The notes beneath the pieces were generated by a model, which was given only the letters and a program-made list of their open reading frames with translations, searched no databases and was not told the origin of the DNA. From Telmatocola sphagniphila (lineage in GTDB: Bacteria; Planctomycetota; Planctomycetia; Gemmatales; Gemmataceae): a stretch of DNA of 32,000 bases. Shown here piece by piece: positions 1 to 25,484 of this stretch (positions are counted from its first letter, which is position 1; each line of letters opens with the position of its first letter). Position numbers and translations under genes: made by a program. The stretch spans positions 3,060,001 through 3,092,000 of the forward strand of contig NZ_CP074694.1 of assembly GCF_018398935.1 (NCBI RefSeq), written 5' to 3'.

Positions 1-1476
1 AAGCGGTTTCTGAAATGGTTCTTAATCACTCTCTTCGTTGTCCTCGCATCAACCGCTTTTGAGATTTTCTACAGCCGACACGTTATTTTCAAGGAATCTC
101 AAGCCGCTTACGATGAGATAACAAAGCACCTCGATGAGACAGATCCGGGCTGGCGCTGGGAGGATCTGCTGGCTGCTAGAAAAGATGTGCCTGATGAAAA
201 GAACTGCTACACGTTACAGAAAGAAATTATGGCGATTTATCCCCGCAAATTCGATGTAGCGAAAGGGTTTGCTCGCGATAATTTTGATTTGGAGAATGGA
301 TTAGTTGATCACCATGCTCCAGAACCTGAGAGATATCGCACTCTTCCCGCTCCGCTACCCTTTGAAGTACTGGACTGGGCAGGTGGTTATCTAGGGAACA
401 GAGAAAAAGCAATTCAGTTGGCTCGGGCTATGGCAGATCGCCCAGAGGGACGACATCCGATTCAATACAATTATGATCTGCTGGAGACTAATATTCAAAC
501 AGTGTCAGACACTCGAGCTATCAATTTTTTTCTGGAATGGGATGTTCGTATTCAAGTTCACAACCGGCGTTTCGAATTGGCCGTTCGAGACATGAAGGCA
601 ATTCACAACCTTGCAAGATCTAATGAACAAGACCCCCTTATAATCTGTATGCTAATTCGATTAGCATTGAATGTGCGACAGGCTCAACTAACACAGGAAA
701 TCCTTGCGGAAGCTACTTCCAAAGACGCCGATTTACGAACTATTCAGAATCTCTTCGAGGAAGATCTGACAGAAAACATTTTTGCTCAGGCTCTCCGATT
801 TGAGCGCGGCTTTATTTGGACTATGCTACGCAGAATTGCTGAGCAGGATGAGTCCGCGAACAATAGGATCAAGAGCCTGCCTCTTGAAGGATTCGCGGGC
901 TTAAACTATCGCCCCTATTCGCTCGGTGATCAGGCTCGGCTACTAGAAGTCTTCGAAAATTGCCTCGACATTAGCAACTTACCCATCGATCTGGTATTTG
1001 ATAATGCGAATAAATACTCTGAATGGTTTGACTCCGTAGTAACAAAAAAAACGGATTACAATAGAATGCGATTCCTACTGACTCGGGTATATGCCCCGAA
1101 CTTCAAAAGATTGGCGTTCGCCTATTTACGCTGGATAGCTCAACTCCGAACCGCAATCATAGGCGTCGCGTGCGAACGATACCGGCTTACCAAAGGTAAA
1201 TGGCCGGAAAATCTGGATGATTTGGTTCCACAATTCCTGTCTGAATCCTTCGAAGATCCTTTTACAGGCCAGCCAATGGTTTACAAAAAAGTGGTTGATG
1301 GAATTATCCTCTACAGTGTGGGCGAGAATCAAATAGATGACGGTGGAGATGTACTGCCCAAAGTGGAGAAAAAACTTTCGGATCCTAGCCCGGAAAACGC
1401 AAATGTTATTAATCCCACCGATATCGGCTTCCGCCTCTGGAATCCGGAACTTCGAGGGAAGGCGCCTTCCAAGTAA
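1..1476 (+). CDS. Hypothetical membrane-anchored protein (5' end outside window) with a pseudopilin (GspG-like) C-terminal motif
   Basis: Frame 1 is open from base 1 ([23 protein letters not shown] = TM helix) and continuous with the 187..1476 ORF, so the GTG at 187 is probably not the true start. The C-terminus '[20 protein letters not shown]...[27 protein letters not shown]' follows the conserved pattern of type II secretion pseudopilin globular domains. Confidence 0.7.
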
Positions 1477-2695: not shown

Positions 2696-3073
2696 CTACT
2701 TTTCGACGATTTTGATCTGCTTGGCGTCGTCTATTTCGATTCGAGGGACGCCATCCACCTCTTTGACAGTCCCCTTTACCTCGATTTTCTTATCTTTGAA
2801 ATGGTCCGCAGGCTTCTCGATCCCTGCATCCTTAAGGCTGGTCGCACCTTTTTTTGTGATGACTACTGCGAAATTCTTTTCATCTCGAAAGTTCTCTTCC
2901 GCATCCATGTATATTTCACCACGAGCCTCCAGTCGATCCTTGGTGACTTTGACATCCATCTTGAGAGTAATTTCGCTACCCACTTTTTTGCGGGCTTCCA
3001 CGGGGTTAAGGGCGTTGTCCGCCGCGGTAAAAAATGCAAGCGTCATCAGGCACATCGCGATTTTACCGACCAT
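2696..3073 (-). CDS. Small secreted protein of unknown function (possibly OB-fold-like)
   Basis: 125-aa ORF with N-terminal signal-like helix MVGKIAMCLMTLAFFTAADNA. GAGGA Shine-Dalgarno 7 nt upstream of the ATG (revcomp of 3074-3088 = gaggaactgagtATG). The C-terminal 'FKDKKIEVKGTVKEVDGVPRIEIDDAKQIKIV' resembles the terminal strands of small OB-fold domains (inference only). Confidence 0.65.
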   Translation of the reverse strand: MVGKIAMCLMTLAFFTAADNALNPVEARKKVGSEITLKMDVKVTKDRLEARGEIYMDAEENFRDEKNFAVVITKKGATSLKDAGIEKPADHFKDKKIEVKGTVKEVDGVPRIEIDDAKQIKIVEK

Positions 3074-4562: not shown

Positions 4563-4694
4563 ATTTGCTGAATTAACCTGGATTTCGTCTTTGGCAATAG
4601 AAATCTCTTTGCATTCCCTAAGGCTTTTTCAGTAAACTAAGGATAAGAATATTATTCCCTTTGCATATTTTAGTGCTCAAATGGAGAGCCGCAC

Positions 4695-7600
4695 ATGGCC
4701 GTGAGCAGCGGTTTCAAACAGCAGTGCCCCAGTTGTGAGGCGTCAGTTCCCATCAAGGACGACTCGCTGGTTGGCAAAAAAATTGATTGTCCTAAATGCA
4801 AGTATCGGTTCGTAGTCGAGCAACCGGCTGCTTCTCCAAGCGACGACGAAGAAGAGAAAACCGAGAAGAAAGCAGCTCCCGTCAAGAATTCCAGCAAGGG
4901 TAAACCCCTCCCCCGTCGCGATGAAGACGAGGAAGAGGGAGGAGAAGCGAAGCCCGCGAAGAAAAAAGCCGGTTCGAACAATATGATGTTGGTCGGCGGC
5001 GGCCTCGGAGGTTTAGCTGTTATTCTGCTTATCGGCGCCTACGCCATGGGAATGTTCGGCGGCGAAGATAAACCGGTTGCGAGCAATAAGACCTCTACGA
5101 GTACACCGCCCCCCAGACCCGCTGTAACGCCCAGTTCGAACCCCTCGAATGAACAGCCTCCGGCTACAGAAACTCCTGCGGCTCCGACCGAACCGCCTGC
5201 GAATTCCACACCGACCGCTCAATCGGATCCCTCCGTTCCGGCTTCTTCAGGCGGCGATCCTACAAATCTGTTACCTAATGAAACTCAATTCGTGTTCCAT
5301 CTGAACATGAACAAGTTTTATGGTAGCCCGATCGGCAATCGGCTTTTTGCTTCCGAGACCAAGACTAAGGACTTCGTCTATCAGAATTTGGGGATCCCGG
5401 CAGACAAGATCAAGGAAGTCGTCGTCGGTGCACACACCATCGAAGGATGGAGCTTTACCGTCGTCCGAAGCTCGACTCCGTTCGATCCGGTGAAGGTCCG
5501 AAATTCTCTCGGTCTCGCTCCCGGTCATTCCTCCGTTCGAAATTACAAGTACAGCCTGATTAAGTACAATCCGCTCATCGAAACGCTGGCGGCCTATGTT
5601 CAGGACATTGTCAACGATAATCTGGGCGACTCCGATCTCAAATTGTTCCATGGGCTTCCCGATCGCAAGATCGCCGCTTTCCTCGTGGACACCTCAACCT
5701 TAGTGGTCGGCGATGAATCGGTTGTCACGAAGTTTCTCAAGGATGATCTGAAACCTTCGACCAAATCGACTTTAAGCACCGGCGCTCTTTCCGATTCCAA
5801 TGCTCCGGCTGGGGATGATTCCGAAGGTTCTGGTCGCGGTGGCAAAGGCGGTGGCGCTCCTCAGGGTCCCGGTAGCGGAGGCCCAACGCCACCTCCAGGA
5901 CCCGGAAGTGGAGGTCCGACCGCACCTCCAGGACCGAAGTCATTTCCTGGTCCAGGAGGCCCGGGCGGACCTGGCGGGCCCGGTGGTAGAGGGGGAAACA
6001 ACGTTCAGAATTACACAAACAATTCCAGCTATTTGACGATTTCTCCCACGCTGAAATTGATGATGAATCGATTGGAAGATTCCCCCACCGGAGTCGTGGC
6101 CAGTTGTGCCTTCTCTCTGCCGGATCTCTCCGGCCTGGGTGGAGCGGCCATGGGCGTGGTGAAGAATCAATTCTTACCAGGCAGTGATTCCGACCTCGTG
6201 AAGAAAAGCACCCCCGTCTTTGGATTCGTTCTGAAGGAGATTGATCAAAAACGGGCGGCTTTAAGCGTATTGCTGGAACAGAATGTCAAAGATGATGTCG
6301 CTCAGAAAATTGCGGCGGCGGGTAATCAATTTCTCAAACCGCTGATCGCCGCTTTGATCGAATCAGAATTCAACATTAAAGTGAAGCAAAATGGCGGCGG
6401 CCGCGGCCCAGGCGGCTTCCCCAACGGTCCCGGTGTGCCGGGTGGCCCGGGCGGCCCCGGAGGTCCGGGCGGTCCTGGCCGACCGGGTCAAGGCGGTCCT
6501 GGAAGTAATGCGCAATCCTATTCAAATCCGGATCAGGGTCAGGGTCCGGACTTAGAGAATCCTCTGCAAGGTAAAGGCTCGCCCCAAGTTCCTGGTCCGG
6601 GCGGCCCTCCCGGTGGTCCGGGTGGCCCTGGAATTCCCGGCGGTCCTCCTCCAGGTCCTGGCGTCCCCAATAGAAACGGTGGTGGACCCAATGGCGGGGA
6701 CAACCAAGACCCGAATGGATCTACCGTGGAGTTTACCAGCAATGGTCGAGTTGTTACCCTGACCGTCGAAATCGACTGGTCGCGAAATATTTTCGATGCC
6801 CGAATCGCAGCTATTCTTGATGGTAAAGTGGATCAGCAGCGGTCGAAAGCCATCCTACTGGCCCAGCGAGCTCACTGGACATCGTTGGCCAAGCCTCTGA
6901 AGGAATTCCAGCGAGTCGGCGAATTTCCATACGGGGCTTTCCCGCGAAAATCCAATCCAGACCGCTTCATGCTGCCTTTCCCGGCCGATCAGCGAGTCAG
7001 CTGGATGTGCGAACTTCTTCCCGCTCTCGGTTATGATGCTCTCTCCCGGGATATTTTCCGGGATCTTCCTTGGAATCACTCCTCGAACCTCAAAGCAGGC
7101 GTTCGCTGGATTCCGGAATTCCTAAGTCCGGCTCAGCCCAGTAACACCTGGCGAGTGGAACTGCCTAGCGTTCGGCATCAGGACCTGGGGGCTACGCACT
7201 TTGTGGGCCTCTCCGGTATCGGCCTCGATGCTGCAGATCTTCCGGATACTCCGGAGAATGCCAAGAAACTGGGAATCTTCGGCTACGATCGCAAGACCAA
7301 ATTCGCGGACATCGTCAATGGTGACGGCGCTGCGAACACGATCTTTGTAATGCAGGTGGCTCCAAATATTCCGCGTCCCTGGATTCGCGGCGGCGGTACG
7401 ACGGTACAGGGAGTTCCTGAAACGAACAGCATGGCTCCCTTCCGAGTCATGCAACCCGATCAACGATTTGGAAACTATGCGATGATGGCTGATGGTTCGG
7501 TCCGCTACATCACTTCCAATATCTCTGATGATGTCTTCAAAGCAATGGTGACCTACAAGGGGGGAGAGAAGCTTGCCGATCTCGATCAGGCTGCCCCCAA

Positions 7601-8594
7601 GGAAGATCCCCAAGGTGTCGAAATCAAAGCCAACGTTCGCAACTTGCGAGCGGGGGAATCGGTTTTGTCCGACTGGCGCGAACATGAAATTAAAGAGGTT
7701 TATCTGAAAGTTCGAACGCCAGGCGGCATTCAAAGTGAAGATATCAAGGATGGTAGAAGTATAGTAATCGAAAGTTTTTACAGCTGTCCCTCGATCAATA
7801 ACCCCATCTTCACCGTTCACATTGCTCCGACCGATTTCATCCTGGCCCTCGACGGTGATAATCAAGCGGATCTGGATCGCTTGATGGGAGCCCTGTCCAA
7901 ACGAGCGATCGCCCCGGAGAAAGTGGAAAAGAAGAAATACGGCAATAAGAACTGCCGCCGCTTCGAATTGCAGATGGCCAAAGGCCGTTATGCAAATTTG
8001 ATGTTTATCTCTGCGGGTAAAGTCGTGATTCTGGAAGTACCGATCGGACAAGTCAAGGATACCGATATCGAGACATTTTTCAGCTCAATCAGAACGGATG
8101 AGCCCAAGTTCGTTCGCGGTTGGCAACCCTTCGAACTTTCGCAGTCGGGTACCAAAGTCACCCTCGAAATGCCGGCTACTCCCGAGCAACTTTCCTCGGC
8201 CGCCAATCCGTTCCAGAAACTGTTCGTTTATCGCGATCGTTTCAACAAGGTAGGGGCTCAGTTCGAAGTCGAAATCGTCAGCGGTACTGAATACCCCGCA
8301 AACGACTACGATGGCAAGAAGGTCGAGAAAGAAATCGAATCGATGAAGCGGCCCGGAGTGGAGATCTATCAGATGGAACCTGTTCTAACGAATGAATTGC
8401 ACGGTTTGCAATTCCGGATGCGGGTTACCACGGTGGATAAGGACAAGAAAGAGAAAGTGGAAAATTCGGTCAACCGGATTTATCTCTTCAACAACACGAA
8501 GGTCCGGGTTCGAATCCGCTTCTCCGATCTGGCAACCGAAGCGGAAATCAAACGCTACATGAACTCTGTGAAGCTCGAACAGCCCAAGAATTAA
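4695..8594 (+). CDS. Giant (1299 aa) zinc-ribbon-anchored membrane protein with Gly/Pro elastomer-like tracts, a DUF1559-like domain and a tandem C-terminal domain pair
   Basis: GGAGAG SD at 4683-4688, 6 nt before the ATG at 4695. CPSC-x17-CPKC zinc ribbon (aa 11-36). One TM helix (aa ~96-121). Pro/Thr/Ser spacer. GPGG tracts. DUF1559-like strings 'THFVGLSGIGLDAA', 'DGAANTIFVMQV', 'MMADGSVRYITSNISDDVFKAMVTYKGGE'. Rho-independent terminator directly downstream. Confidence 0.85.
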   Translation: MAVSSGFKQQCPSCEASVPIKDDSLVGKKIDCPKCKYRFVVEQPAASPSDDEEEKTEKKAAPVKNSSKGKPLPRRDEDEEEGGEAKPAKKKAGSNNMMLVGGGLGGLAVILLIGAYAMGMFGGEDKPVASNKTSTSTPPPRPAVTPSSNPSNEQPPATETPAAPTEPPANSTPTAQSDPSVPASSGGDPTNLLPNETQFVFHLNMNKFYGSPIGNRLFASETKTKDFVYQNLGIPADKIKEVVVGAHTIEGWSFTVVRSSTPFDPVKVRNSLGLAPGHSSVRNYKYSLIKYNPLIETLAAYVQDIVNDNLGDSDLKLFHGLPDRKIAAFLVDTSTLVVGDESVVTKFLKDDLKPSTKSTLSTGALSDSNAPAGDDSEGSGRGGKGGGAPQGPGSGGPTPPPGPGSGGPTAPPGPKSFPGPGGPGGPGGPGGRGGNNVQNYTNNSSYLTISPTLKLMMNRLEDSPTGVVASCAFSLPDLSGLGGAAMGVVKNQFLPGSDSDLVKKSTPVFGFVLKEIDQKRAALSVLLEQNVKDDVAQKIAAAGNQFLKPLIAALIESEFNIKVKQNGGGRGPGGFPNGPGVPGGPGGPGGPGGPGRPGQGGPGSNAQSYSNPDQGQGPDLENPLQGKGSPQVPGPGGPPGGPGGPGIPGGPPPGPGVPNRNGGGPNGGDNQDPNGSTVEFTSNGRVVTLTVEIDWSRNIFDARIAAILDGKVDQQRSKAILLAQRAHWTSLAKPLKEFQRVGEFPYGAFPRKSNPDRFMLPFPADQRVSWMCELLPALGYDALSRDIFRDLPWNHSSNLKAGVRWIPEFLSPAQPSNTWRVELPSVRHQDLGATHFVGLSGIGLDAADLPDTPENAKKLGIFGYDRKTKFADIVNGDGAANTIFVMQVAPNIPRPWIRGGGTTVQGVPETNSMAPFRVMQPDQRFGNYAMMADGSVRYITSNISDDVFKAMVTYKGGEKLADLDQAAPKEDPQGVEIKANVRNLRAGESVLSDWREHEIKEVYLKVRTPGGIQSEDIKDGRSIVIESFYSCPSINNPIFTVHIAPTDFILALDGDNQADLDRLMGALSKRAIAPEKVEKKKYGNKNCRRFELQMAKGRYANLMFISAGKVVILEVPIGQVKDTDIETFFSSIRTDEPKFVRGWQPFELSQSGTKVTLEMPATPEQLSSAANPFQKLFVYRDRFNKVGAQFEVEIVSGTEYPANDYDGKKVEKEIESMKRPGVEIYQMEPVLTNELHGLQFRMRVTTVDKDKKEKVENSVNRIYLFNNTKVRVRIRFSDLATEAEIKRYMNSVKLEQPKN
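5815..6000 (+). repeat. In-frame Gly/Pro low-complexity tract 1 (GPGSGGPT / PGGPGG units)
   Basis: Translation: GSGRGGKGGGAPQGPGSGGPTPPPGPGSGGPTAPPGPKSFPGPGGPGGPGGPGGRGG. Degenerate tandem units at DNA level (ggtcc/ggagg/ccggg words). Confidence 0.8.
6390..6720 (+). repeat. In-frame Gly/Pro low-complexity tract 2
   Basis: Translation: NGGGRGPGGFPNGPGVPGGPGGPGGPGGPGRPGQGGPGS...VPGPGGPPGGPGGPGIPGGPPPGPGVPNRNGGGPNGG. Confidence 0.8.
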
Positions 8595-8615
8595 GTTCTC
8601 AAAGCACCCACATAG

Positions 8616-8645
8616 AGCCACGATGAATAATCGTGGCTTTTTTTA
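8616..8645 (+). terminator. Rho-independent terminator of the 1299-aa gene; hairpin shared with the convergent nadB
   Basis: agccacga (8616-8623) / tcgtggct (8631-8638): 8-bp stem, 7-nt loop, followed by TTTTTTATTT. The nadB stop codon (revcomp of 8643-8645) lies inside the T-tract. Confidence 0.75.
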
Positions 8646-10262
8646 TTTACCGAAGAGGTCCTGAATATCGGGACAGACCAGATGCGTTTTCCAATGATCG
8701 CTGGAAGTTGGAAAATCGCTGCGGAAATGCGTGCCCCGCGATTCCGTGCGCTTCAGCGCGGAATCGATCATTGCCCGGGCAACCGTCAGCAAATTCTGCA
8801 GTTCCCAGCCCTTCTGAGTGTCGAACTGCTTCACCAGAGCATAGCGGCACCAGAAATCGACATCCTGACGGGCTTCGGTCATCCGCTCCTTAGAACGGAC
8901 GATTCCCATCTTTCGAACCATCAAGCTCCGGAGAGAGTTGGTCATATCGTCGATATCCAACCATTGCTTGGCGTAAGGTTCGATTTCGAATTTGAACGCT
9001 GCGACCGAGTTTAGGACTCCTCCTTCGCGTACGGCACGGACAGCCCCGTGAGCGCAGAGAGACCCGTAGACCAAGCCCTCGATCAGACTATTGGAAGCCA
9101 ACCGATTCGCCCCGTGTAAACCGCTGGAAGTGACCTCCCCTGCCGCCCAAAGATTGCGAACGGAGGTCCGTCCAGTCTCGTCGACCACGATACCCCCGAT
9201 CATATAGTGGGCCCCGGGTCGCACGGGAATACGGTCCTTGGTAATATCCAGCCCGAAAGTCTTGCAAACTTTGGCAATTCCGGGGAATCTCTTATGAGTC
9301 ATCGCGGGATCGAGATGAGAAAGATCCAGATAGACGTTGGGATGTTGCGTGCGTTCCATGCATCGAAAAATTGCTTGCGAAACGATATCGCGGGGGGCCA
9401 ATTCCGCCCGAGGATCGTCCTTCAGCATGAATCGTTCGCCGTTCACATCGCGAAGGTAGGCCCCTTCGCCCCGGACGGCTTCGCTGATCAAATGGCGTGC
9501 CGATCCGGCGACATAAAGTACGGTCGGGTGAAACTGCATAAACTCCATGTCTTGGAGTTTCGCCCCCGCACGGTAAGCGGCGGCCATACCATCCCCTGTT
9601 GCCACGGGAGGATTGGTCGTCTCCCGGTAAACCATGCCGCAACCGCCCGAAGCCAGAATCACCTGGCGGGCCCAGATCATCACTTTTCCCATCGGCTCCT
9701 TGTAAACCAGGGCACCGAGACATTCGTTTTCTTTTGTCAGCAAATCGAGCGTAAACGTGCCATCCAGAAGTTCGATATTGGGAGCGGCCTTCGCCCGCTC
9801 GATAAGAGCCCGCATCACCTCCCAACCCGTGGCATCGCCTAAAGCGTGCACGATACGGCGATGGCTGTGTCCCCCCTCCCGGGTGAGGGCGAGTTCCCCA
9901 TTTTCGCGATCGAAAATCGTACCGAATTTGACGAGATCGGCGATTTGTTGCGGAGCTTCGCGAATCACCATCTCGACGATTGCCGGATCGCACAGCCCGG
10001 CGCCCGCGACCAGAGTATCATCAATGTGATTTTCGAACGTATCCTCGGGGGATAGAACGCCGGCAATACCTCCTTGAGCATAGGAGGAATTGCTTTCCCG
10101 AAGTTTGTCCTTGGTGATTAGCAGAACTTGTAAGTCACTGGGAATCTCCAGTGCGGCCCGGATGCCAGCGATGCCCGCTCCGATAATCAGCACATCGGCG
10201 AAGCGATGGTATTCGCGGCGGGTATCAAAAGAGACTAGAAATCTATTGGGAACCATACCCAA
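8643..10262 (-). CDS. nadB: L-aspartate oxidase
   Basis: 539 aa. FAD motif 'DVLIIGAGIAGIRAAL'. 'SSYAQGGIAGV', 'LTREGGHSHRRIVHA' and 'ESRGTHFRSDFP' are near-identical to conserved NadB blocks. Confidence 0.95.
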   Translation of the reverse strand: MGMVPNRFLVSFDTRREYHRFADVLIIGAGIAGIRAALEIPSDLQVLLITKDKLRESNSSYAQGGIAGVLSPEDTFENHIDDTLVAGAGLCDPAIVEMVIREAPQQIADLVKFGTIFDRENGELALTREGGHSHRRIVHALGDATGWEVMRALIERAKAAPNIELLDGTFTLDLLTKENECLGALVYKEPMGKVMIWARQVILASGGCGMVYRETTNPPVATGDGMAAAYRAGAKLQDMEFMQFHPTVLYVAGSARHLISEAVRGEGAYLRDVNGERFMLKDDPRAELAPRDIVSQAIFRCMERTQHPNVYLDLSHLDPAMTHKRFPGIAKVCKTFGLDITKDRIPVRPGAHYMIGGIVVDETGRTSVRNLWAAGEVTSSGLHGANRLASNSLIEGLVYGSLCAHGAVRAVREGGVLNSVAAFKFEIEPYAKQWLDIDDMTNSLRSLMVRKMGIVRSKERMTEARQDVDFWCRYALVKQFDTQKGWELQNLLTVARAMIDSALKRTESRGTHFRSDFPTSSDHWKTHLVCPDIQDLFGK

Positions 10263-10294: not shown

Positions 10295-13200
10295 CTACTT
10301 CGGATCCCCGGAACCGGAAGCCGATCCCGAAGTGGCCCGCTTGTAGGCGTCGTCGAAACCCGGAGGAGCGTTACCGCGGGTTCCGCGCTCAGTTTTGGAG
10401 TCGGAATTTCCTTCGAGCTTGATGGTTTCGCTGCCGCGATTGAGCATACTGGCCCCTTTGGAGCGGGAACCCGATTTCGCTTCCTTCTTTTCCAGCTCCA
10501 CCAGTCGCTGGCGTTCGCGGTTTAAGGCTTCTTCGGCCGATTTCAGGAACTGCTCGTACTGTTCGGGGGTCATTTCGACCTGTTTCAGCATTTCCTTGTT
10601 CGACTTATTTTTGCGGAAATCCTCCAACTGCAGTTCCGCGGCCTTGACCTTATTTTTAAGATCAGCCACCATCGGATCGATCTTATCCTCACCGCCTCCG
10701 GAAGCGGGATTGACTGGGAGTTCGCCCTTCAAATTGCCATCCTTGGGAGCCTTGCCGCCGAGTTTATTGCCTTCCTGATCCTTCTTGGCCAGTTCGCCCT
10801 TGTCCATCTTGGGATCTTTGGAATTTTTGGGATCGGCTTTAGGATCCTGTTTCGGATCCCCCTGGGCAGTATCCTCCTTGCCCTCTTTCCCTTTAGAAGC
10901 GGCATTATCGCCCTCTTTCTTGGCCGCGTCGTTCTTACCTTCCTTGCCTCTGGGTGCTGGCTCTTTGTCCTTGGGTCGATTTTGAGCCAATTCATCGGCC
11001 TTTTTCTTCAGTTCCTGCAGACCCTTCTGAACTTCCGGATCCTGCATCTGTTTGGCGAGATCCTGCATCATCTTCTGCATTTCAGGATCTTTCTTCAGCA
11101 GATCCTGAAGTTCCTTCGCGGCCTGTTCCTGCTGTTTCTGATCCTTGGCCTGTTGAGCCAGATCTTTTAAGTCGTTCTTTCGAGCTTGATCCATGGCGTT
11201 TTTCATCGCCTCTTCCAGGTTCTTCCGCTTTTCCGGATCCTTGGCCTGATCGAGCATATCTTTCATCATCTTGCCGGCCATGTCTCGGGTTTTAGGATCC
11301 TTCATGAGATCGGCGATATTCTGCTTCTGCTGGTCGGAGGATTTCTCGCCAGATTTCTGAGCAGAATCTTTCAGACTGTCCTGCCGAGCTTTATCGGCAG
11401 CATTCCGCAATTCCTGAGCGGCCTCGGGATTTTTCTTCTCCATCTGGTCGGCCAGTTTCTCGGCTTGCTGGCGATTTTTCGGATCTTTCAGCATCTCCTC
11501 GAGATCCTTTTTCGCCTGCTCGGTGGATTGGCCGCCGTCATTCTTTTCCGTGTTTCCAGTGGCGTTTTTCTGCGTCTTATCGCCGTCTTTGGGTGCGTTC
11601 TGGTTCGGATCTTTGTTCTCGGGCTTACTTTGCTTCTTGGTCAGACGGTCGACATCCTTTTCCATTTTCTCCTGGGCTTTGGCGTTATCGCGAGCCTCGT
11701 CCACTTTATTTTTCAAGTCGTTTCGCGTCTGATCGTTCGGGGCATTCTTTTCCCATTCTTTCGCTTTCTTCTCCGCCTCGGCTCTCAGCTTCTCATCGCG
11801 TAACAAGCGTTCGAGCCGGTCCTGCTTGGCTTTGTCGAATTTGGCGTCCTTACTGTTCATTTCTCGGTCGAGCTGATTCATCTCCTGCTGGAGATCAGGC
11901 TGTTCCGAGCCGCCTTCGTTCGATTTACCTCCCGACTGCTTCGTATTCTGTTTACCGGGCTCGTTTTTCGCCTGTTGATTGGCTGCGCGATTTTGCTGAG
12001 CCTGCTCCATTTTCTGAGCCGCTTCCTTCCCGGCCTGAGGATCGTTCTTTTCGAGGTTCTTCTGTTCCTTGGCTGCCTGCTCCTGATCGCGGGGGTTATT
12101 CGATTCGGCGTTTTTAGCAATCTGATCGACGTTTTCCTTCTGGCCTTTCTGAGCCGAATCCTTCATCTGTTTCTGGAAATCTTCCTTCTTCTTCTCATCG
12201 CCCGCGTTCTTGGCCAGATCGTCCTTCATCTTCTCGGCCATCTGGCGCGTTGCCGGATCCTGCATCAGTTTGTCCATCTCCTTTTTGCCCTCGGCCTGCC
12301 GATTGGGATCGTCCGATTGCATCTTGGAGGCGGCTTCTTTGAGATTATTTTCCCGGCCCTTATTCATGGAATTTTCGAGTGCCTGCTGCTGCTGTTGAGC
12401 ACCACCCTCACTCTTCTGATTAGCTTTTTCCTCCGCCAACTTCTGACCATTTTGCCGGGAATCCGGGTTCTGCATCTTCTGATCCAGATCCCGCTGCGCT
12501 TTTTGAGCCTCCTGGGGATCGGGGGATTTCGACTTCTTGGAAAGCTGATCGATATCCTCTTTCTCCTGGGCATTCTTCTTGGTTTGCTCAACATCCTTTT
12601 CAAAGTCTCGCTTCTTCTGGGGATCCTGGATGTCGTTCTTCATCTTGTCCAGTTCGTTCTGCATTTCCTGCTTTTTCTTCGGATCCCGTAACAGACGATC
12701 GACATCCTCTTTCTGCCGGCTATTCATCTTGTAGTCTTTGGAGGCGATTTCCCGGGAAAGTTCGCCCGGTTCGGGCGGAGTGCCTTGCTGGGAATTCTTC
12801 TCATCCGGTTTGCCCGGTGAACCGGGGCCCGATTCCGACTTCGACGGGTTCGACTGATCTTTCTTGGGATCAGCCGATTCCTTGGGCATTGGGGCGGTTT
12901 CGGATTTTTCGTCCGATTTGCGGCCGGGATCATTCTTTGTCCCGTCGGCCTTCGGCTGAGGATTACTTCCCTTGACGGGTTGCGATTTGGGACTTCCTGA
13001 CTCTCCGGGCATTGGGGACTGCTCCGGAGGATTGTTCGATTCCTTGCCCGATGGATCTTTTTTGGCCTGCGTATTCTTGTCGTTCAAAGCTTTCTGAATT
13101 CTGTCGGCCTGGCGCTGGAGTTCTTTATCCTTTTCGGATTCGCCACCGGATTCCGAACCTGGTTTTGTGTCCTTGTCGTCGACCCCTTTATTTTCCTTAT

Positions 13201-15481
13201 TCGGCATGGCCTTTGGGTCGGCTTTGCGGTTCTTTTTCTCAGCGCCGGGCTGATTATTGGAATTCTCCGAACCCGGATCGCGACTTTGCGTTTTCTGATC
13301 GTTCGAATTACCCTGGCCGGGATTCTTCCCAGGTTGATCCTGGGCATTCGGATCCTTCTTGGGCACCTCGGGCTGGCCGTTGGCATTTTTGGGTTCTCCA
13401 GGTTGATTCTCCCCGGGCTGTTTGGGCTCCGGCTGGGCCGGATCGCGCTTTTCTTCCTCGTTCTTCTTGTCCTGCTGCGCGTCGAATTGCTGCTTTTCCT
13501 TGGCGAATTCCTCGCGTTTTTTCTGTTGTTGCTGAACCTTGTCTGCCGCTTTTGCGGGCGCGAGGATCTTGACTTTCTGACGATTGGAATAGCCCCGGTT
13601 AGGCCCCGGCGGTACGTCGCAATTGTCGATGGCTTCGAGCCAGTACTCGATGATCATGCCTTCGGCGATCTGGAATTTGGGATCGAAGCCGCGGAGTTGA
13701 CTCAGTTCCACCTGATCCTTATAGTTCAGGAGAGTGGGGTAGGAATTATCCTTCTCTCGCTTGAATTCCTTCCCATCGCGATAGGGTTTTTCCTTCAACG
13801 CTTCGACGCGCGGCGCGACCACTTCCATTCTCAGATTCATACGGCTGATGCCGTGGTCGTCGGTGGCGATTCCTTCGACTTTCAAGGTGTCGTTCAAAGG
13901 CAACTCGATCATTTCTTCCTTGGGCAAAGTGATCCGAACTTGAGGAAGTTCATCGCGGAGCACGCGAATAACTAGCGGCCGGGGATCGGATTCCCCTTCT
14001 CCCGTGGTGGGAGTAAATCGAATTACGCAGGTTTTATCTTCGTCGAGTTTGGGCAGCTTGAATTTCAGGGCCATCGGTTGATCTGGGATCGGTTCGCCGA
14101 CAACCTCCAGAGTCGCCTTGTTGATCTCATCGGGAATTAGAAGCCGCCCGGATTTCACAGGCCGATTACCATAGGCCGTGATCGTCACTTCGGTGCCTCG
14201 GATAGCTTCGATGTCCGGAGTTTTCTCATTTTCCAGCATCTGCATTTTCCAGCGCAGATATTCGGGATACTGGAACTTCAAATCGAACTTGGTGAAAACC
14301 GGCTTGGCATCCAGAAGCGCGATCCGATATTTCTGCGGGTCGCTGTTTCGATCTCCTTCGGTGGTGGTGAAGAAAATTCGATAGCCGCCGTTCTTTTCCA
14401 TGGGGAATCGGAATAGGAGTGCGTCCGGACGATCGGCCGGAATCTCGGCATCATAAGTTCGCGGCTGCCCTTCGATTTGCAGGTAGCCGCTTTTCACCGT
14501 GCGGTTGGTGCTGGCCAGCAGTGTAACTTCCGTGCCGTAGTAGTTGAAGAGATTCGGGTCGTTGGTCTTTTCATCCGGCTTACCGAGATAAGCGGGCAGC
14601 TTGTAAATCACATCGAATCCGGTCAAAATCGGAATGATTTTGCAGGTGATGTGATGTTTGGGTGTCTCCACGCCAGCGGCGCGAAGCTGGTAATCGAAGC
14701 CTTTACGAACCTGATTCCCTTTGACGGTGATGCCCCAAAGTCGGCGATCATCAACGGAAACGTCCAGGGCGCGATCTTCGAAGTTTTCGGGATCCTCCGG
14801 ATTGTACCAGATGCGAAGTTTGGCAGAGTCCGGATCGGTCGCTTTGGGAATCCGGCCGAGAATACGAACCTCGAAACGTATGTCCTCCCCAGAGAAGACT
14901 GTGGTATCGCCTTCCTTAGGAGTTTCCTGCACAAGATCCGTACGGGTCGGTGGCAGGAAGAAAACAACTGCCGCGCCCAGCGCAAAGAAGCCGGCGAGGC
15001 AGGCCGTCCAGAGGAAGGATTTCGCCTCGCCAATTTTGGTCAGGTCGGCCTGCTTCAGATCTTTGGCGGCTTTAGCACTGAGAGCGACTTTGATGGACGG
15101 GGCAACCTTTTCATCCTCGTGCAAGTCAATCCAGTTCACCACACTATTTTTGTGATCGGCGATGGCCTCTTCAACTTTACGCGCCGCATAGTAGGGATTG
15201 ATGGTGTTGCGACTTTTGCGAAACAGCTGGATGTAGGCATAGATCCCAGATATAAGCAGGAAGCAACTCAAGGCCGCCCAACCAACACCCGGCTTCGTGG
15301 AAACGTAGCGGTCGATGAGTAATGCGACAAAAAGAAATAGGAAGAACGAAGCCAGTACAGTCAGCGAAACCGAGAGGATATCGACCAGACGTATCCTCTT
15401 GCGAACTTCTTCGATCTGTTTGCCAACAAATTCTTCGTATTTAGACGCATTTGCCTTCGGGGCGTCGAGCAGCGTGGCCAT
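10295..15481 (-). CDS. Giant (~1730 aa) 3-TM membrane protein: repeated beta-rich extracytoplasmic modules plus a ~950-aa K/E/Q/D/N/P polyampholyte tail (DUF4175-like architecture, from memory)
   Basis: ORF 10295..15511 begins at a TTG. The ATG at 15481 (MATLLDAPK...) is preferred and sits ~47 nt downstream of a TTCAAA-N16-TATAAT promoter-like site. TM helices: ILSVSLTVLASFFLFLFVALLI, WAALSCFLLISGIYAYIQLF, FLWTACLAGFFALGAAVVFFL. Internal module repeat: GTEVTLLASTNRTVKSGYL / GTEVTITAYGNRPVKSGRL. Confidence 0.85.
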   Translation of the reverse strand: MATLLDAPKANASKYEEFVGKQIEEVRKRIRLVDILSVSLTVLASFFLFLFVALLIDRYVSTKPGVGWAALSCFLLISGIYAYIQLFRKSRNTINPYYAARKVEEAIADHKNSVVNWIDLHEDEKVAPSIKVALSAKAAKDLKQADLTKIGEAKSFLWTACLAGFFALGAAVVFFLPPTRTDLVQETPKEGDTTVFSGEDIRFEVRILGRIPKATDPDSAKLRIWYNPEDPENFEDRALDVSVDDRRLWGITVKGNQVRKGFDYQLRAAGVETPKHHITCKIIPILTGFDVIYKLPAYLGKPDEKTNDPNLFNYYGTEVTLLASTNRTVKSGYLQIEGQPRTYDAEIPADRPDALLFRFPMEKNGGYRIFFTTTEGDRNSDPQKYRIALLDAKPVFTKFDLKFQYPEYLRWKMQMLENEKTPDIEAIRGTEVTITAYGNRPVKSGRLLIPDEINKATLEVVGEPIPDQPMALKFKLPKLDEDKTCVIRFTPTTGEGESDPRPLVIRVLRDELPQVRITLPKEEMIELPLNDTLKVEGIATDDHGISRMNLRMEVVAPRVEALKEKPYRDGKEFKREKDNSYPTLLNYKDQVELSQLRGFDPKFQIAEGMIIEYWLEAIDNCDVPPGPNRGYSNRQKVKILAPAKAADKVQQQQKKREEFAKEKQQFDAQQDKKNEEEKRDPAQPEPKQPGENQPGEPKNANGQPEVPKKDPNAQDQPGKNPGQGNSNDQKTQSRDPGSENSNNQPGAEKKNRKADPKAMPNKENKGVDDKDTKPGSESGGESEKDKELQRQADRIQKALNDKNTQAKKDPSGKESNNPPEQSPMPGESGSPKSQPVKGSNPQPKADGTKNDPGRKSDEKSETAPMPKESADPKKDQSNPSKSESGPGSPGKPDEKNSQQGTPPEPGELSREIASKDYKMNSRQKEDVDRLLRDPKKKQEMQNELDKMKNDIQDPQKKRDFEKDVEQTKKNAQEKEDIDQLSKKSKSPDPQEAQKAQRDLDQKMQNPDSRQNGQKLAEEKANQKSEGGAQQQQQALENSMNKGRENNLKEAASKMQSDDPNRQAEGKKEMDKLMQDPATRQMAEKMKDDLAKNAGDEKKKEDFQKQMKDSAQKGQKENVDQIAKNAESNNPRDQEQAAKEQKNLEKNDPQAGKEAAQKMEQAQQNRAANQQAKNEPGKQNTKQSGGKSNEGGSEQPDLQQEMNQLDREMNSKDAKFDKAKQDRLERLLRDEKLRAEAEKKAKEWEKNAPNDQTRNDLKNKVDEARDNAKAQEKMEKDVDRLTKKQSKPENKDPNQNAPKDGDKTQKNATGNTEKNDGGQSTEQAKKDLEEMLKDPKNRQQAEKLADQMEKKNPEAAQELRNAADKARQDSLKDSAQKSGEKSSDQQKQNIADLMKDPKTRDMAGKMMKDMLDQAKDPEKRKNLEEAMKNAMDQARKNDLKDLAQQAKDQKQQEQAAKELQDLLKKDPEMQKMMQDLAKQMQDPEVQKGLQELKKKADELAQNRPKDKEPAPRGKEGKNDAAKKEGDNAASKGKEGKEDTAQGDPKQDPKADPKNSKDPKMDKGELAKKDQEGNKLGGKAPKDGNLKGELPVNPASGGGEDKIDPMVADLKNKVKAAELQLEDFRKNKSNKEMLKQVEMTPEQYEQFLKSAEEALNRERQRLVELEKKEAKSGSRSKGASMLNRGSETIKLEGNSDSKTERGTRGNAPPGFDDAYKRATSGSASGSGDPK
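10700..13560 (-). repeat. Low-complexity polyampholyte coding region with degenerate super-repeats
   Basis: About 950 codons almost devoid of hydrophobic residues. Seven copies of a [DE]x[LM][LM][KQR]DPxx[RK]Q..K[LM]-like motif (RLLRDPKKKQEMQ, KLMQDPATRQMAEKM, RLLRDEKLRAEAEKK, EMLKDPKNRQQAEKL, DLMKDPKTRDMAGKM, DLLKKDPEMQKMM, KQMQDPEVQKGL). Four copies of (K/E)(E/K)(D/N)(V/I)D(R/Q)(L/I). Confidence 0.85.
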
Positions 15482-15534
15482 GCGATAGTCTCTCTCGATG
15501 AATCCGGCCAATAATCCGGGGATGATACTAATTA

Positions 15535-20806: not shown

Positions 20807-21424
20807 TTAAGACCGCAAGCTGAAATAGAAGGACACCATACCCGTCAGAATGCTTTGCCAGAGCAGCAGATTAATTTCCTGGACAATATGCGGCATGATC
20901 AGGCATTGGATGATGACTTCCGCCGTCATACCGATGGCTGAAACGATCGATAACCAGGCCATGATGGTTTGCAGAAACGGCGACCTGGAACTCGGTAACG
21001 GCCTCAGCAGGATTCCCAGCAAAAAGCCGATCCCCGTCGACAGGAGAAACTGGGGGAAATAGGGAATCTGATCGGAGCTCGGCGTCAATCGCGACCAGAG
21101 TCGATCGCTGTCGAATTGGTACTGATAAACCAGAATTCCGATGGTTCCCCCCAGCAATAGAAAGCGAATTACCCCACGCGGAAGATAAAGCGGATTTCCC
21201 AATCCCTTGGCGTAGGCGATTGTACTCCCATGCGAGATGAAGAAAATCATCACCATCGCCAGTAAAAAGTACAGATTGAGAGGCACGCTCGTCGTAACAT
21301 TCTGAGGTAGACTCAGAAGTACCCAAAGTTGAACGGTAATCAGAATGCTGAGAATGGCGCGCACGCTACCCGGGGGTAAACCCAGCGGCGGTCTCAAGTC
21401 ATCATCGTCCGGTACATCTTTCAT
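20807..21424 (-). CDS. Polytopic membrane protein of unknown function
   Basis: The ATG at 21424 (MKDVPDDDD...) has an AGGAGA SD 6 nt upstream, so it is preferred over the ORF-track start at 21493. Five to six hydrophobic helices (e.g. AILSILITVQLWVLLSL, LYFLLAMVMIFFISHG, FLLLGGTIGILVY, FLLSTGIGFLLGILL, IMAWLSIVSAIGMTAEVII). Confidence 0.7.
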   Translation of the reverse strand: MKDVPDDDDLRPPLGLPPGSVRAILSILITVQLWVLLSLPQNVTTSVPLNLYFLLAMVMIFFISHGSTIAYAKGLGNPLYLPRGVIRFLLLGGTIGILVYQYQFDSDRLWSRLTPSSDQIPYFPQFLLSTGIGFLLGILLRPLPSSRSPFLQTIMAWLSIVSAIGMTAEVIIQCLIMPHIVQEINLLLWQSILTGMVSFYFSLRS

Positions 21425-21523
21425 GGTGTTCTCCTGAAGTGCTATTCGATCAGTTCCGGATCCAAATTTGGGAAATTCTCGCCGGGGTTTCAAACAATTT
21501 TAGGGGATTAACGGCAAAACGCC

Positions 21524-24380: not shown

Positions 24381-25484
24381 TCAGGGTAATTCGATTTTTT
24401 GAAATTTGAACTTTACCGGAACTTCAATCCAGGTTCCGGGATACTTATATTCCAGCGACCAACCCAGTAGCGAATTAATCTTTAAACCTTTCTTTTCGTC
24501 CTCTTCAAATCGATAGACAAAACGCCCATCGGCTTCTTCGAATCCTCGCGCCGGGAACCGCTTTCCCTCTGGGGAGATCAAACTCGCGGAGTGATATGCG
24601 AACCGATCTCTTTCAAAGCTTTCAAATTCAGCAAAATTGGTAGCCTTATATCGGGTCGTGATCGTCGCCGACCAAAACCGGCCATCTTTTTTCAGGCCCT
24701 GAAACTCCACGACCGATTCCGCCTGCTCCAGAGTTCTGCTCTTCTGCAGTTCCTGGAATTTTTCCGTTTTGAGTTCCGGACACAGGGTGATATTAACTTT
24801 CCCCTCCAAGGCCGTAATCGAGTGAGAAGTTCGGGGAATCGAGTAAATGGGAAGAACCAGCGTGGCAAAATTGCCCCGGGAGGCCGTCCGCACGCGGTTC
24901 TCCCGCGGCTGATATTTATTTTTGAGATCATCCATAAATTCCGAAATCTGCGGTTGCACATCGCAGCGGCATACAGAAAAGCGCGGCTCCCAGGCCAGTT
25001 GAAACTGGAAGCTGGTCTTCTTCTCTCCGGTCCGGAAATCGCTTTCGGCCCGGACGTCCCGCAGTTCGACCCGGAAAGGCCCATCCACGGACAATTTTGG
25101 GGTTTTCAGCTGATGAGAAGTCAATCGCCAATCCAGCCCATTAACAGGAATTTCTATTACGCTGTTGGTAAGGTGTCCCAGTCGTTCAATGGCATTCCAA
25201 AAAGTCTCTTTGGAGTTCGTTGCAGCCCCGTTTACCGGCATAGGCGTTAAAATTCCACCAATCCTTACTTTTGTCTGCTTTTCAATTGCCTGAGAAATGG
25301 ACTGGGCATCTTCAAAACGGGCTTCGATCTGCGTCGCTTGCAGGCGTGGATCCTCTGCCCGACAGTTTCCGAGCCCCAAACCCATAAAGACCACTAGAGC
25401 TAATTTCCGCACGGTTATCCTTCGTCGGGGGAATTTGCCGGTTTTTTCTTCGCTACGCCGCTGGAGTTTCCTAGCCAATGTCAC
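24381..25484 (-). CDS. Hypothetical secreted protein
   Basis: 367-aa ORF with a GTG start at 25484. Basic N-terminus then a hydrophobic helix (RKLALVVFMGLGLGNCRA). No recognisable catalytic motif. The start codon is uncertain. Confidence 0.6.
   Translation of the reverse strand: MTLARKLQRRSEEKTGKFPRRRITVRKLALVVFMGLGLGNCRAEDPRLQATQIEARFEDAQSISQAIEKQTKVRIGGILTPMPVNGAATNSKETFWNAIERLGHLTNSVIEIPVNGLDWRLTSHQLKTPKLSVDGPFRVELRDVRAESDFRTGEKKTSFQFQLAWEPRFSVCRCDVQPQISEFMDDLKNKYQPRENRVRTASRGNFATLVLPIYSIPRTSHSITALEGKVNITLCPELKTEKFQELQKSRTLEQAESVVEFQGLKKDGRFWSATITTRYKATNFAEFESFERDRFAYHSASLISPEGKRFPARGFEEADGRFVYRFEEDEKKGLKINSLLGWSLEYKYPGTWIEVPVKFKFQKIELP

Follow-up and report, generated by a model that had tools for sequence, protein, structure and literature searches.

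A DUF1559 head without a prepilin leader in a membrane-anchored protein of Telmatocola sphagniphila and its Gemmatales relatives

DUF1559 proteins (PF07596, SBP_bac_10) make up one of the largest paralogue families of the Planctomycetota. There are 68 in Planctopirus limnophila, two of them essential. In Tuwongella immobilis 91 proteins combine SBP_bac_10 with the prepilin leader N_methyl, and three SBP_bac_10 proteins carry a Sec signal peptide (PMC8567305), indicating that further leaderless DUF1559 forms exist. The statement in a preliminary description of the sequence studied here, that DUF1559 normally sits behind a prepilin helix, is thus a strong rule but not an absolute one. The present case was found in a 32,000 nt stretch of the Telmatocola sphagniphila genome (NZ_CP074694.1, positions 3,060,001 to 3,092,000), the whole of which is referred to as the window. 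The gene encodes a protein of 1299 amino acids (aa) in which a DUF1559 head stands behind a predicted zinc ribbon and an ordinary transmembrane (TM) helix, and it is a new member of an unstudied, widespread Gemmatales family, real but not unique.

Several described systems resemble parts of this protein. Type IV pilins and pseudopilins are defined by a class III signal peptide and a hydrophobic N-terminal half of the first helix (alpha1-N), and the 1299-aa protein has neither. The archaeal proteins FlaF/FlaG (ArlF/ArlG) are a precedent for filament-subunit-related domains that stay on an unprocessed membrane anchor and serve a type IV filament machine as immobile components that bind the envelope; they lie in the archaellum operon and are presumably unrelated in sequence and fold to the protein described here. 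ZitP of Caulobacter crescentus, a zinc-finger pilus regulatory protein that links the cytoplasmic organiser PopZ with Cpa pilus biogenesis, has the same layout, in which a single TM helix joins a cytoplasmic zinc ribbon at the N-terminus to a periplasmic domain. The likeness to ZitP is confined to layout, as no DUF3426 domain was detected in the 1299-aa protein, there is no match at the sequence level and no pilus genes are nearby. GltJ (AgmX) of Myxococcus xanthus shares the zinc ribbon, the bitopic layout and a Pro-rich periplasmic spacer, but its GYF and TonB-C domains are missing here. The GltJ ribbon acts as a switch in the cytoplasm, with MglB and an internal linker as its binding partners, and it resembles the ZitP ribbon in structure (PMC11135422). 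TP0453 of Treponema pallidum, a 287-aa lipoprotein, has a periplasmic alpha/beta/alpha domain with amphipathic helices; the domain compared with it below is tethered by a TM helix, is split by a Gly/Pro loop of ~90 aa and has no sequence similarity to it.

The DUF1559 head and the modules around it

On re-reading, the gene was exactly as first delimited (4695-8594, plus strand, 1299 aa, ATG start), and the N-terminus of its product corresponds residue for residue to that of homologues. The product is a one-pass membrane protein, encoded as a single-gene unit, with a fixed domain order: zinc ribbon, charged linker, TM helix, Pro/Thr/Ser tether, a predicted TP0453-like split domain, a second Gly/Pro loop (GP2), beta-hairpin, polar helix and DUF1559 head, followed in the subfamily of the window protein by PsbP/Mog1-like accessory domains (Table 1).

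PF07596 matched the whole protein with 46.4 bits (E 6.8e-12) and aa 676-975 with 51.7 bits (E 1.6e-13), against a gathering score of 23.3, the alignment to this hidden Markov model (HMM) reaching only profile positions 31-172 of 268. For comparison, three canonical prepilin-DUF1559 genes were recovered from Gemmataceae loci. With hhalign, the family profile aligned to the three encoded proteins with 98.9% probability (E 1.3e-17) over 227 columns, aa 724-962 of the query covering canonical residues 43-318 of 319, so that no part of the globular head is missing. What lacks an aligned counterpart is confined to the first ~42 canonical residues, which hold the leader, the hydrophobic helix alpha1-N and the stretch LLLPAVQ..REAA. 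Single-sequence phmmer searches against the same three proteins aligned only the C-terminal DGSVRF region. The DUF1559 domain initially placed at aa ~715-960 is thus genuine, at aa ~724-962, and the strings that had been quoted for it are present (aa 769-783, 834-847, 873-888 and 930-958).

In common with canonical planctomycetal DUF1559 proteins, the head has the motifs SW..LLP.L, THF.G and (T)SNT and, at its C-terminal end, the DGSVRF strand. Motifs of the head in the window protein include QRVSW, ATHFVG, NTI and DGSVRY. The head differs from the canonical one in several respects. The two Cys positions that canonical heads conserve (C-x-NNLKQ and CPS) hold other residues in the family, and a family-specific insert, RPW-x-GGG-x-T-V-x-G-V-P-E, is present, of which the window protein shows RPW-x-GGG-x-T. 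R767, W793, T834, W896, G900 and G901 are invariant head residues of the family's own. The H-X9-DG motif (TIGR04294) reached only 14 bits against a cut-off of 19, with only its second half aligned; the DGSVR part is kept but the family lacks the His, with Gln923 in its place in the window protein and a Gly in the consensus of the family. The family also has no N_methyl leader and no hydrophobic alpha1-N, and in the window protein accessory domains follow the head.

The preliminary description had further proposed that the leader helix is replaced by more than 700 residues including a zinc ribbon and an ordinary TM anchor. This holds, with ~720 residues preceding the head, and so does the absence of a leader: no prepilin-like G-F-T-L-I-E motif occurs anywhere in the 1299 aa, and Pfam and NCBIfam scans of the protein gave no N_methyl match. 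The position of pilin helix alpha1 is occupied by a polar helix (aa 697-722) without the hydrophobic N-terminal half, its mean Kyte-Doolittle (KD) hydropathy being -0.29 over 60 relatives versus +2.83 for canonical alpha1-N. A head behind a zinc ribbon, a TM helix and ~550 further residues cannot belong to a processed, polymerising pilin and, given that there is neither a class III signal peptide nor a hydrophobic alpha1-N, neither cleavage by prepilin peptidase nor entry into a filament core is expected.

All of the N-terminal features listed at the outset are present: the CPSC-x17-CPKC motif, the acidic/Lys tract, the single TM helix and the Pro/Thr/Ser spacer. Conservation in the family is highest in the ribbon, with all four Cys invariant in 60/60 aligned relatives and K29, P33, K34 and F39 likewise invariant. 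AlphaFold2 (AF2) models it with a predicted local distance difference test score (pLDDT) of ~95 as four short strands, the two-beta-hairpin CxxC/CxxC pattern, at the extreme N-terminus. With the family profile, the best PDB sequence match of the ribbon is 7zok, from GltJ/AgmX (E 0.0025), in which the four Cys all align. Across the family, the cytoplasmic linker varies from 15 to 74 aa and the Pro/Thr/Ser tether from 39 to 98 aa, and the TM helix has a mean KD hydropathy of +2.29. A topology with the N-terminus in the cytoplasm and the C-terminus in the periplasm (N-in/C-out) is suggested by the Lys residues clustered ahead of the TM helix, by the Cys4 zinc site of the N-terminal domain and by the cytochrome c domains in which some relatives end.

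Three other assignments for this region were considered and rejected. A zinc-binding anti-sigma factor (ZAS) was ruled out because CxxC-x17-CxxC forms a beta ribbon, no helical HxxxCxxC domain is present and no sigma factor gene is nearby. A TonB-like protein was ruled out because TonB_C gave no match, the TM helix is Gly-rich and lacks His, and the match to the NCBIfam GltJ model scored 26 bits against a cut-off of 450 and covered only the TM helix and the Pro-rich tract. The name FliL, given to two homologues by the Joint Genome Institute (JGI), reflects a match limited to the TM region.

An AF2 model of aa 1-975, built from a 60-sequence alignment, had a mean pLDDT of 72.6 and a predicted template-modelling score (pTM) of 0.66, with 303 of the 975 residues (31%) disordered (aa 47-177, 364-436 and 569-671). 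D1 had a pLDDT of 82-96 except for a loop near aa 300-320, and D2 76-94 except for a dip to 55-59 at aa ~481-500. Among PDB structures the only target above noise found by Foldseek was TP0453 (3k8g-3k8j). The match is weak (E 2.9e-3, probability 1.0, target-normalised template-modelling score (TMt) 0.48-0.53, root-mean-square deviation 7-10 Å), but its 348-386 alignment columns against a 250-residue target fit aa 191-563, where D1, the first Gly/Pro loop (GP1) and D2 amount to 373 aa, so that D1 and D2 can be read as halves of one domain. The models thus indicate one alpha/beta/alpha domain of TP0453-like type, interrupted by a Gly/Pro loop. The two globular segments with Gly/Pro tracts that had been reported do exist (aa 191-352 and 446-563), but AlphaFold and Foldseek join them in one domain rather than two. 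Neither D1 nor D2 had a sequence match in Pfam, NCBIfam or the PDB, and when the PDB was searched by sequence with the head, with the profile of D1 or with that of the whole family, the outcome was either nothing or low-complexity noise. A lipobox anchor of the D1/D2 module is absent, the TM helix serving as the anchor.

The pLDDT of the hairpin at aa 676-694 rises from 54-66 in the model lacking D1 and D2 to 77-93 in the model that includes them. This gain, with a pTM of 0.66 despite 31% disorder, suggests that the TP0453-like domain, the hairpin and the head probably form one periplasmic body, in which case the Gly/Pro tracts would be loops rather than linkers of a beads-on-a-string arrangement. 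Both loops occur in every relative, with 48-56% Gly plus Pro across the family, and range from 43 to 161 aa (GP1) and from 39 to 191 aa (GP2). The DNA of both contains tandem repeats, 33 bp × 2.1 copies in GP1 (5868-5935) and 9 bp × 5.6 copies in GP2 (6438-6487), which may drive their variation in length across the family.

The region after the head (aa 976-1299) had no significant match in Pfam or NCBIfam, and BLASTP found no similarity between its two units. In an AF2 model of aa 676-1299 (mean pLDDT 77.1), the first unit had a pLDDT below 50 up to aa 1054 and 61-76 thereafter, and the second 63-92. Foldseek matched this model to PsbP (1v2b, E 6.8e-6, TMt 0.62; 7wff_f, TMt 0.70) and also to TplEi, DcrB, LpqN, Mog1, Tsi3 and EagT6/Eag chaperones. 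The PsbP-type matches vanish for the model without the tail and hence belong to aa 976-1299, and the C-terminal extension is predicted to have a PsbP/Mog1/DcrB/DUF1795-like fold. A tail is absent in 117 of 205 family members. Other tails consist of one TIGR03067 domain, one to possibly three PsbP-like units, a cytochrome c (CAMCH motif in L042, ORF from 2050; PF13442 in P0093) or a miniature second DUF1559-like unit, as in L079 (open reading frame (ORF) from 4223), which reads NYLKQIGLAYHNY...TSNT...MADGSVR.

Distribution and expression of the family

A protein search returned 314 relatives, the best being 37% identical to the 1299-aa protein. The best 120 of the 314 are 844-1473 aa long and all have PF07596; 115 share the zinc ribbon at the N-terminus and the single TM helix, and the other 5 are N-terminally truncated, their gene calls starting at an internal Met within the ribbon. 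The D1 profile, searched against 1.84 billion representative proteins, gave 532 matches at E<=1e-3, 392 at E<=1e-10 and 127 at E<=1e-30, corresponding to a family of ~390-530 clusters at 50% identity. D1 is always found at about residue 150-230, behind the zinc ribbon and TM helix. The leaderless head is present in all 86 new representatives of at least 700 aa that were found by D1 alone, as well as in the earlier 120 (206/206), and its presence in every full-length relative examined shows that the architecture is fixed.

A scan of one genome per species confirmed 167 loci, and the named genera among them are all Gemmatales (Zavarzinella, Limnoglobus, Fimbriiglobus, Gemmata, Urbifossiella and Tuwongella), so that a survey for the domain order has found it fixed across this order. 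The 80 of these loci that were listed come from 79 assemblies, so that among them there is nearly always one locus per assembly, compared with ~91 canonical DUF1559 paralogues in T. immobilis. Weak matches to the zinc ribbon only all proved to be family members on short or frameshifted contigs and not other architectures. Several metagenome bins labelled 'uncultured Alcaligenaceae' (loci L024, L026, L060 and L067) also carry the family, and these labels are probably wrong or the bins contaminated.

The architecture is therefore common and has been deposited, but under generic names, 'DUF1559 domain-containing protein' or 'DUF1559 family PulG-like putative transporter'. No functional study of the family was found in the literature, and the view taken in the preliminary description, that the architecture fits no characterised system, is unchanged. 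The architecture class is already in print for Tuwongella, where it was not analysed, and the protein reported there is very probably a family member. The T. immobilis homologue (P0030) is VTR96690.1 (GMBLW1_33240), with the same mass (108,428 Da) and neighbourhood. In the excerpt of the published subcellular proteome table that covers it, GMBLW1_33240 is listed with one TM helix, PF07596 only, no signal peptide and the location 'CytoplasmicMembrane'. It was recorded there in all three fractions, at 3.2-4.9e9 in Triton X-100, 1.7-2.4e9 in sodium dodecyl sulfate (SDS) and 0.26-0.57e9 in the Tris-soluble fraction, and three N_methyl proteins in the same excerpt have values of 0.5-1.3e9. The Tuwongella protein is thus made and is abundant. 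New in the present analysis are the predicted TP0453-like split domain, the PsbP/Mog1-like tail with its swaps between subfamilies, and the lack of conserved neighbours.

Possible roles of the protein

The preferred reading, with a probability of roughly 0.4, is that the protein is a non-polymerising N-in/C-out envelope adaptor that resembles ZitP and GltJ in layout. It is favoured because the best match of the ribbon, that of GltJ, is a cytoplasmic protein-binding switch similar to the ZitP ribbon. The head would be a permanently anchored, non-polymerising copy of a pilin-type head and would act as a fixed periplasmic docking or organising subunit. Together with the TP0453-like domain, a putative lipid- or membrane-interacting module joined to it, the head may recognise the same partners as other DUF1559 heads, whether these are one another or an envelope ligand that they have in common. 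The near-invariant zinc ribbon would, through the single TM helix, tie this periplasmic module to a conserved cytoplasmic partner. The scaffold-like or signalling-like use of a DUF1559 head that had been proposed from the sequence is a reasonable reading.

A number of observations weigh against an adaptor. The DUF1559 family itself has no assigned function, and no pilin was present among the 38 PDB Foldseek matches to the aa 1-975 model, which includes the head. HMMs of known zinc ribbons scored below their cut-offs for the 1299-aa protein (TIGR02098 (MJ0042) 15.1 versus 20.9, LysW 18.3 versus 27, PF13717 12.3 versus 30.3 and PF13719 9.8 versus 29.3). Zinc binding is predicted, and the cytoplasmic protein partner is hypothetical. 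Packing between the domains is deduced only from the pTM and pLDDT of the model, and the high abundance is easier to reconcile with a structural than with a regulatory function. The genomic data tie the protein to no pilus or secretion machine. When ORFs of 81 loci were clustered, the best neighbour cluster occurred in 15/81, and the conserved neighbours that had been looked for do not exist in this set. The main ORFs of the window include no type II secretion system (T2SS), type IV pilus (T4P) or prepilin-peptidase genes. More generally, no genomic association was found between this gene and assembly genes (ATPase, platform protein, secretin or prepilin peptidase), and a T2SSF gene lies ~5 kb from a family member in Tuwongella only.

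An alternative, though an unlikely one, is an envelope tether or lipid handler unrelated to pili and anchored in the cytoplasmic membrane. The TP0453-like and the PsbP/LpqN/DcrB-like modules would bind outer-membrane lipid or hydrophobic envelope cargo, and the long Gly/Pro loops would be entropic spacers in the enlarged, invaginated periplasm of the Gemmatales. TP0453 is indeed the only PDB fold match for aa 191-563, and LpqN, DcrB and Eag chaperones are among the matches of the tail; the constant presence of loops of 39 to 191 aa, the abundance of the Tuwongella protein in all fractions and the restriction of the family to Gemmatales are all in keeping with a tether. However, the TP0453 match is weak (E 3e-3, template-modelling score ~0.5) and has no sequence support, and a tether leaves unexplained both the complete DUF1559 head, retained with its own invariant motifs in 206/206 members, and the cytoplasmic zinc ribbon as the most conserved part.

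A transmembrane sensor or transducer, in which a ligand is sensed in the periplasm and the ribbon sequesters or releases a cytoplasmic regulator in the style of an anti-sigma or one-component system, is doubtful to a similar degree. It would account for the near invariance of the ribbon, and the zinc ribbon-TM-periplasmic layout is that of bitopic regulators, while the exchangeable C-terminal modules (none, TIGR03067, PsbP-like, cytochrome c or mini-DUF1559) recall the diversification of sensors. However, no gene for a sigma factor or regulator lies next to this one or is conserved at the other loci, the N-terminal domain is a beta ribbon lacking the anti-sigma motif HxxxCxxC, and the abundance is high for a regulator.

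A more elaborate role, and quite an improbable one, would be that of an order-specific inner-membrane hub of a planctomycetal fibre, crateriform-structure or macromolecule-uptake apparatus. Here a static paralogue of the pilin head would nucleate, anchor or gate fibres made of the ~90 DUF1559 pseudopilins, with the TP0453-like lipid-binding domain contacting the outer membrane and the zinc ribbon positioning the complex from the cytoplasm.

It is highly improbable that the protein is a cryptic pilin precursor, cleaved within or after GP2 so that the freed head joins a fibre or is secreted. The long disordered loops would be accessible to proteases, and the Tris-soluble fraction holds the Tuwongella protein at ~10% of the Triton-fraction signal, but there is no prepilin motif anywhere in the protein, the helix before the head is polar throughout the family and hence no filament-core helix, and AF2 docks the hairpin that precedes the head onto D1 and D2. 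An artefact (a mis-assembled or fused ORF, or a pseudogene) has no positive point in its favour beyond the long low-complexity tracts that could in principle conceal frameshifts, and is effectively refuted by an uninterrupted ORF, more than 200 homologues with the same domain order, the upstream gene order shared with the closest relatives and the detection of the Tuwongella homologue as a protein.

The family would be a further example of a pilin-type head put to use elsewhere than in a filament, and it extends the zinc ribbon-TM-periplasmic module layout of ZitP and GltJ to another phylum. It may also provide an experimental handle on the DUF1559 head, and perhaps on the planctomycetal fibre or macromolecule-uptake machinery, given its order-wide conservation, its occurrence at nearly one locus per listed assembly and its abundant expression in T. 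immobilis. A single knockout would sidestep the redundancy of ~90 paralogues. As there is no leader, the head should be non-polymerising and could be produced as a soluble protein for structural work and ligand screens.

Feature coordinates, flanking signals and neighbouring genes

Table 1. Features of the Telmatocola sphagniphila DUF1559 gene and its product. Positions are those of the window.
Feature	Position	Strand	Basis
Sigma-70-like promoter match, TTTTCA-18-TATTAT	4626..4655	+	Consensus match only, 9/12 positions; ~40 nt before start codon
Shine-Dalgarno-like GGAG	4683..4686	+	8 nt 5' of ATG, read from sequence
Coding sequence, 1299 aa + stop	4695..8594	+	Uninterrupted ORF from ATG
Four-Cys zinc ribbon (C11, C14, C32, C35), aa 1-45, predicted cytoplasmic	4695..4829	+	Sequence, AF2
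Acidic/Lys-rich disordered cytoplasmic linker, aa 46-95, KKK end just before TM helix	4830..4979	+	Sequence, AF2
Single Gly-rich TM helix, aa 96-121	4980..5057	+	Hydropathy, AF2 helix aa 100-121
Pro/Thr/Ser-rich disordered periplasmic tether, aa 122-190	5058..5264	+	Sequence, AF2
D1, aa 191-352, predicted first half of TP0453-like alpha/beta/alpha domain, opens with motif TNLLPN	5265..5750	+	AF2, Foldseek
Gly/Pro-rich disordered loop GP1, aa 353-445, inside TP0453-like domain	5751..6029	+	Sequence, AF2
D2, aa 446-563, predicted second half of TP0453-like domain, motif YLTIxPxLKxM	6030..6383	+	AF2, Foldseek
Gly/Pro-rich disordered loop GP2, aa 564-675	6384..6719	+	Sequence, AF2
Beta-hairpin (676-694) then long polar helix (697-722, 727-741), aa 676-741	6720..6917	+	AF2
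Leaderless DUF1559 head, aa 742-975	6918..7619	+	PF07596, hhalign, pLDDT above 90
First accessory unit, beta-rich, low to moderate confidence, aa 990-1135	7662..8099	+	AF2
Second accessory unit, predicted PsbP/Mog1/DcrB-like fold, aa 1140-1299	8112..8591	+	AF2, Foldseek
Intrinsic-terminator-like hairpin, 11-bp stem, then T run	8614..8640	+	20 nt past stop codon

The promoter-like match is located in a 132-nt divergent intergenic region shared with a gene of the UDP-glucose dehydrogenase family, and the terminator-like hairpin separates the DUF1559 gene from a convergent nadB-like gene (8643-10262, minus strand), such that it may terminate both. These sites and the lack of a conserved neighbour indicate a stand-alone gene, for which an operon gives no functional clue. 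The genes of the window are of the housekeeping type. The divergent UDP-glucose/GDP-mannose dehydrogenase-family gene and the convergent NadB-like gene flank the DUF1559 gene, and genes for RNase Y, YmdB, a rhomboid protein, ribosomal proteins L13 and S9, and pyruvate dehydrogenase E1, E2 and E3 are also present. Rfam and tRNA scans of the window were empty.

The neighbourhood of the Tuwongella locus differs from that of the window. Among the loci of relatives, only the two closest retain the upstream dehydrogenase-family gene together with a 126-aa ORF, which apparently corresponds in position to the 125-aa ORF at 2696-3073 (minus strand) in the window. The latter has no Pfam match, and the same is true of the ORFs at 187-1476 (plus strand), 20807-21493 and 24381-25484 (both minus strand). 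ORF 10295-15511 (minus strand, 1738 aa), also with no Pfam match, has hydrophobic N-terminal segments and a beta-rich middle, and its C-terminal ~1000 aa are extremely rich in Lys, Glu, Gln and Asp, with a strongly negative AT skew (to -0.52). The 228-aa product of ORF 20807-21493 is by appearance a multi-pass membrane protein.

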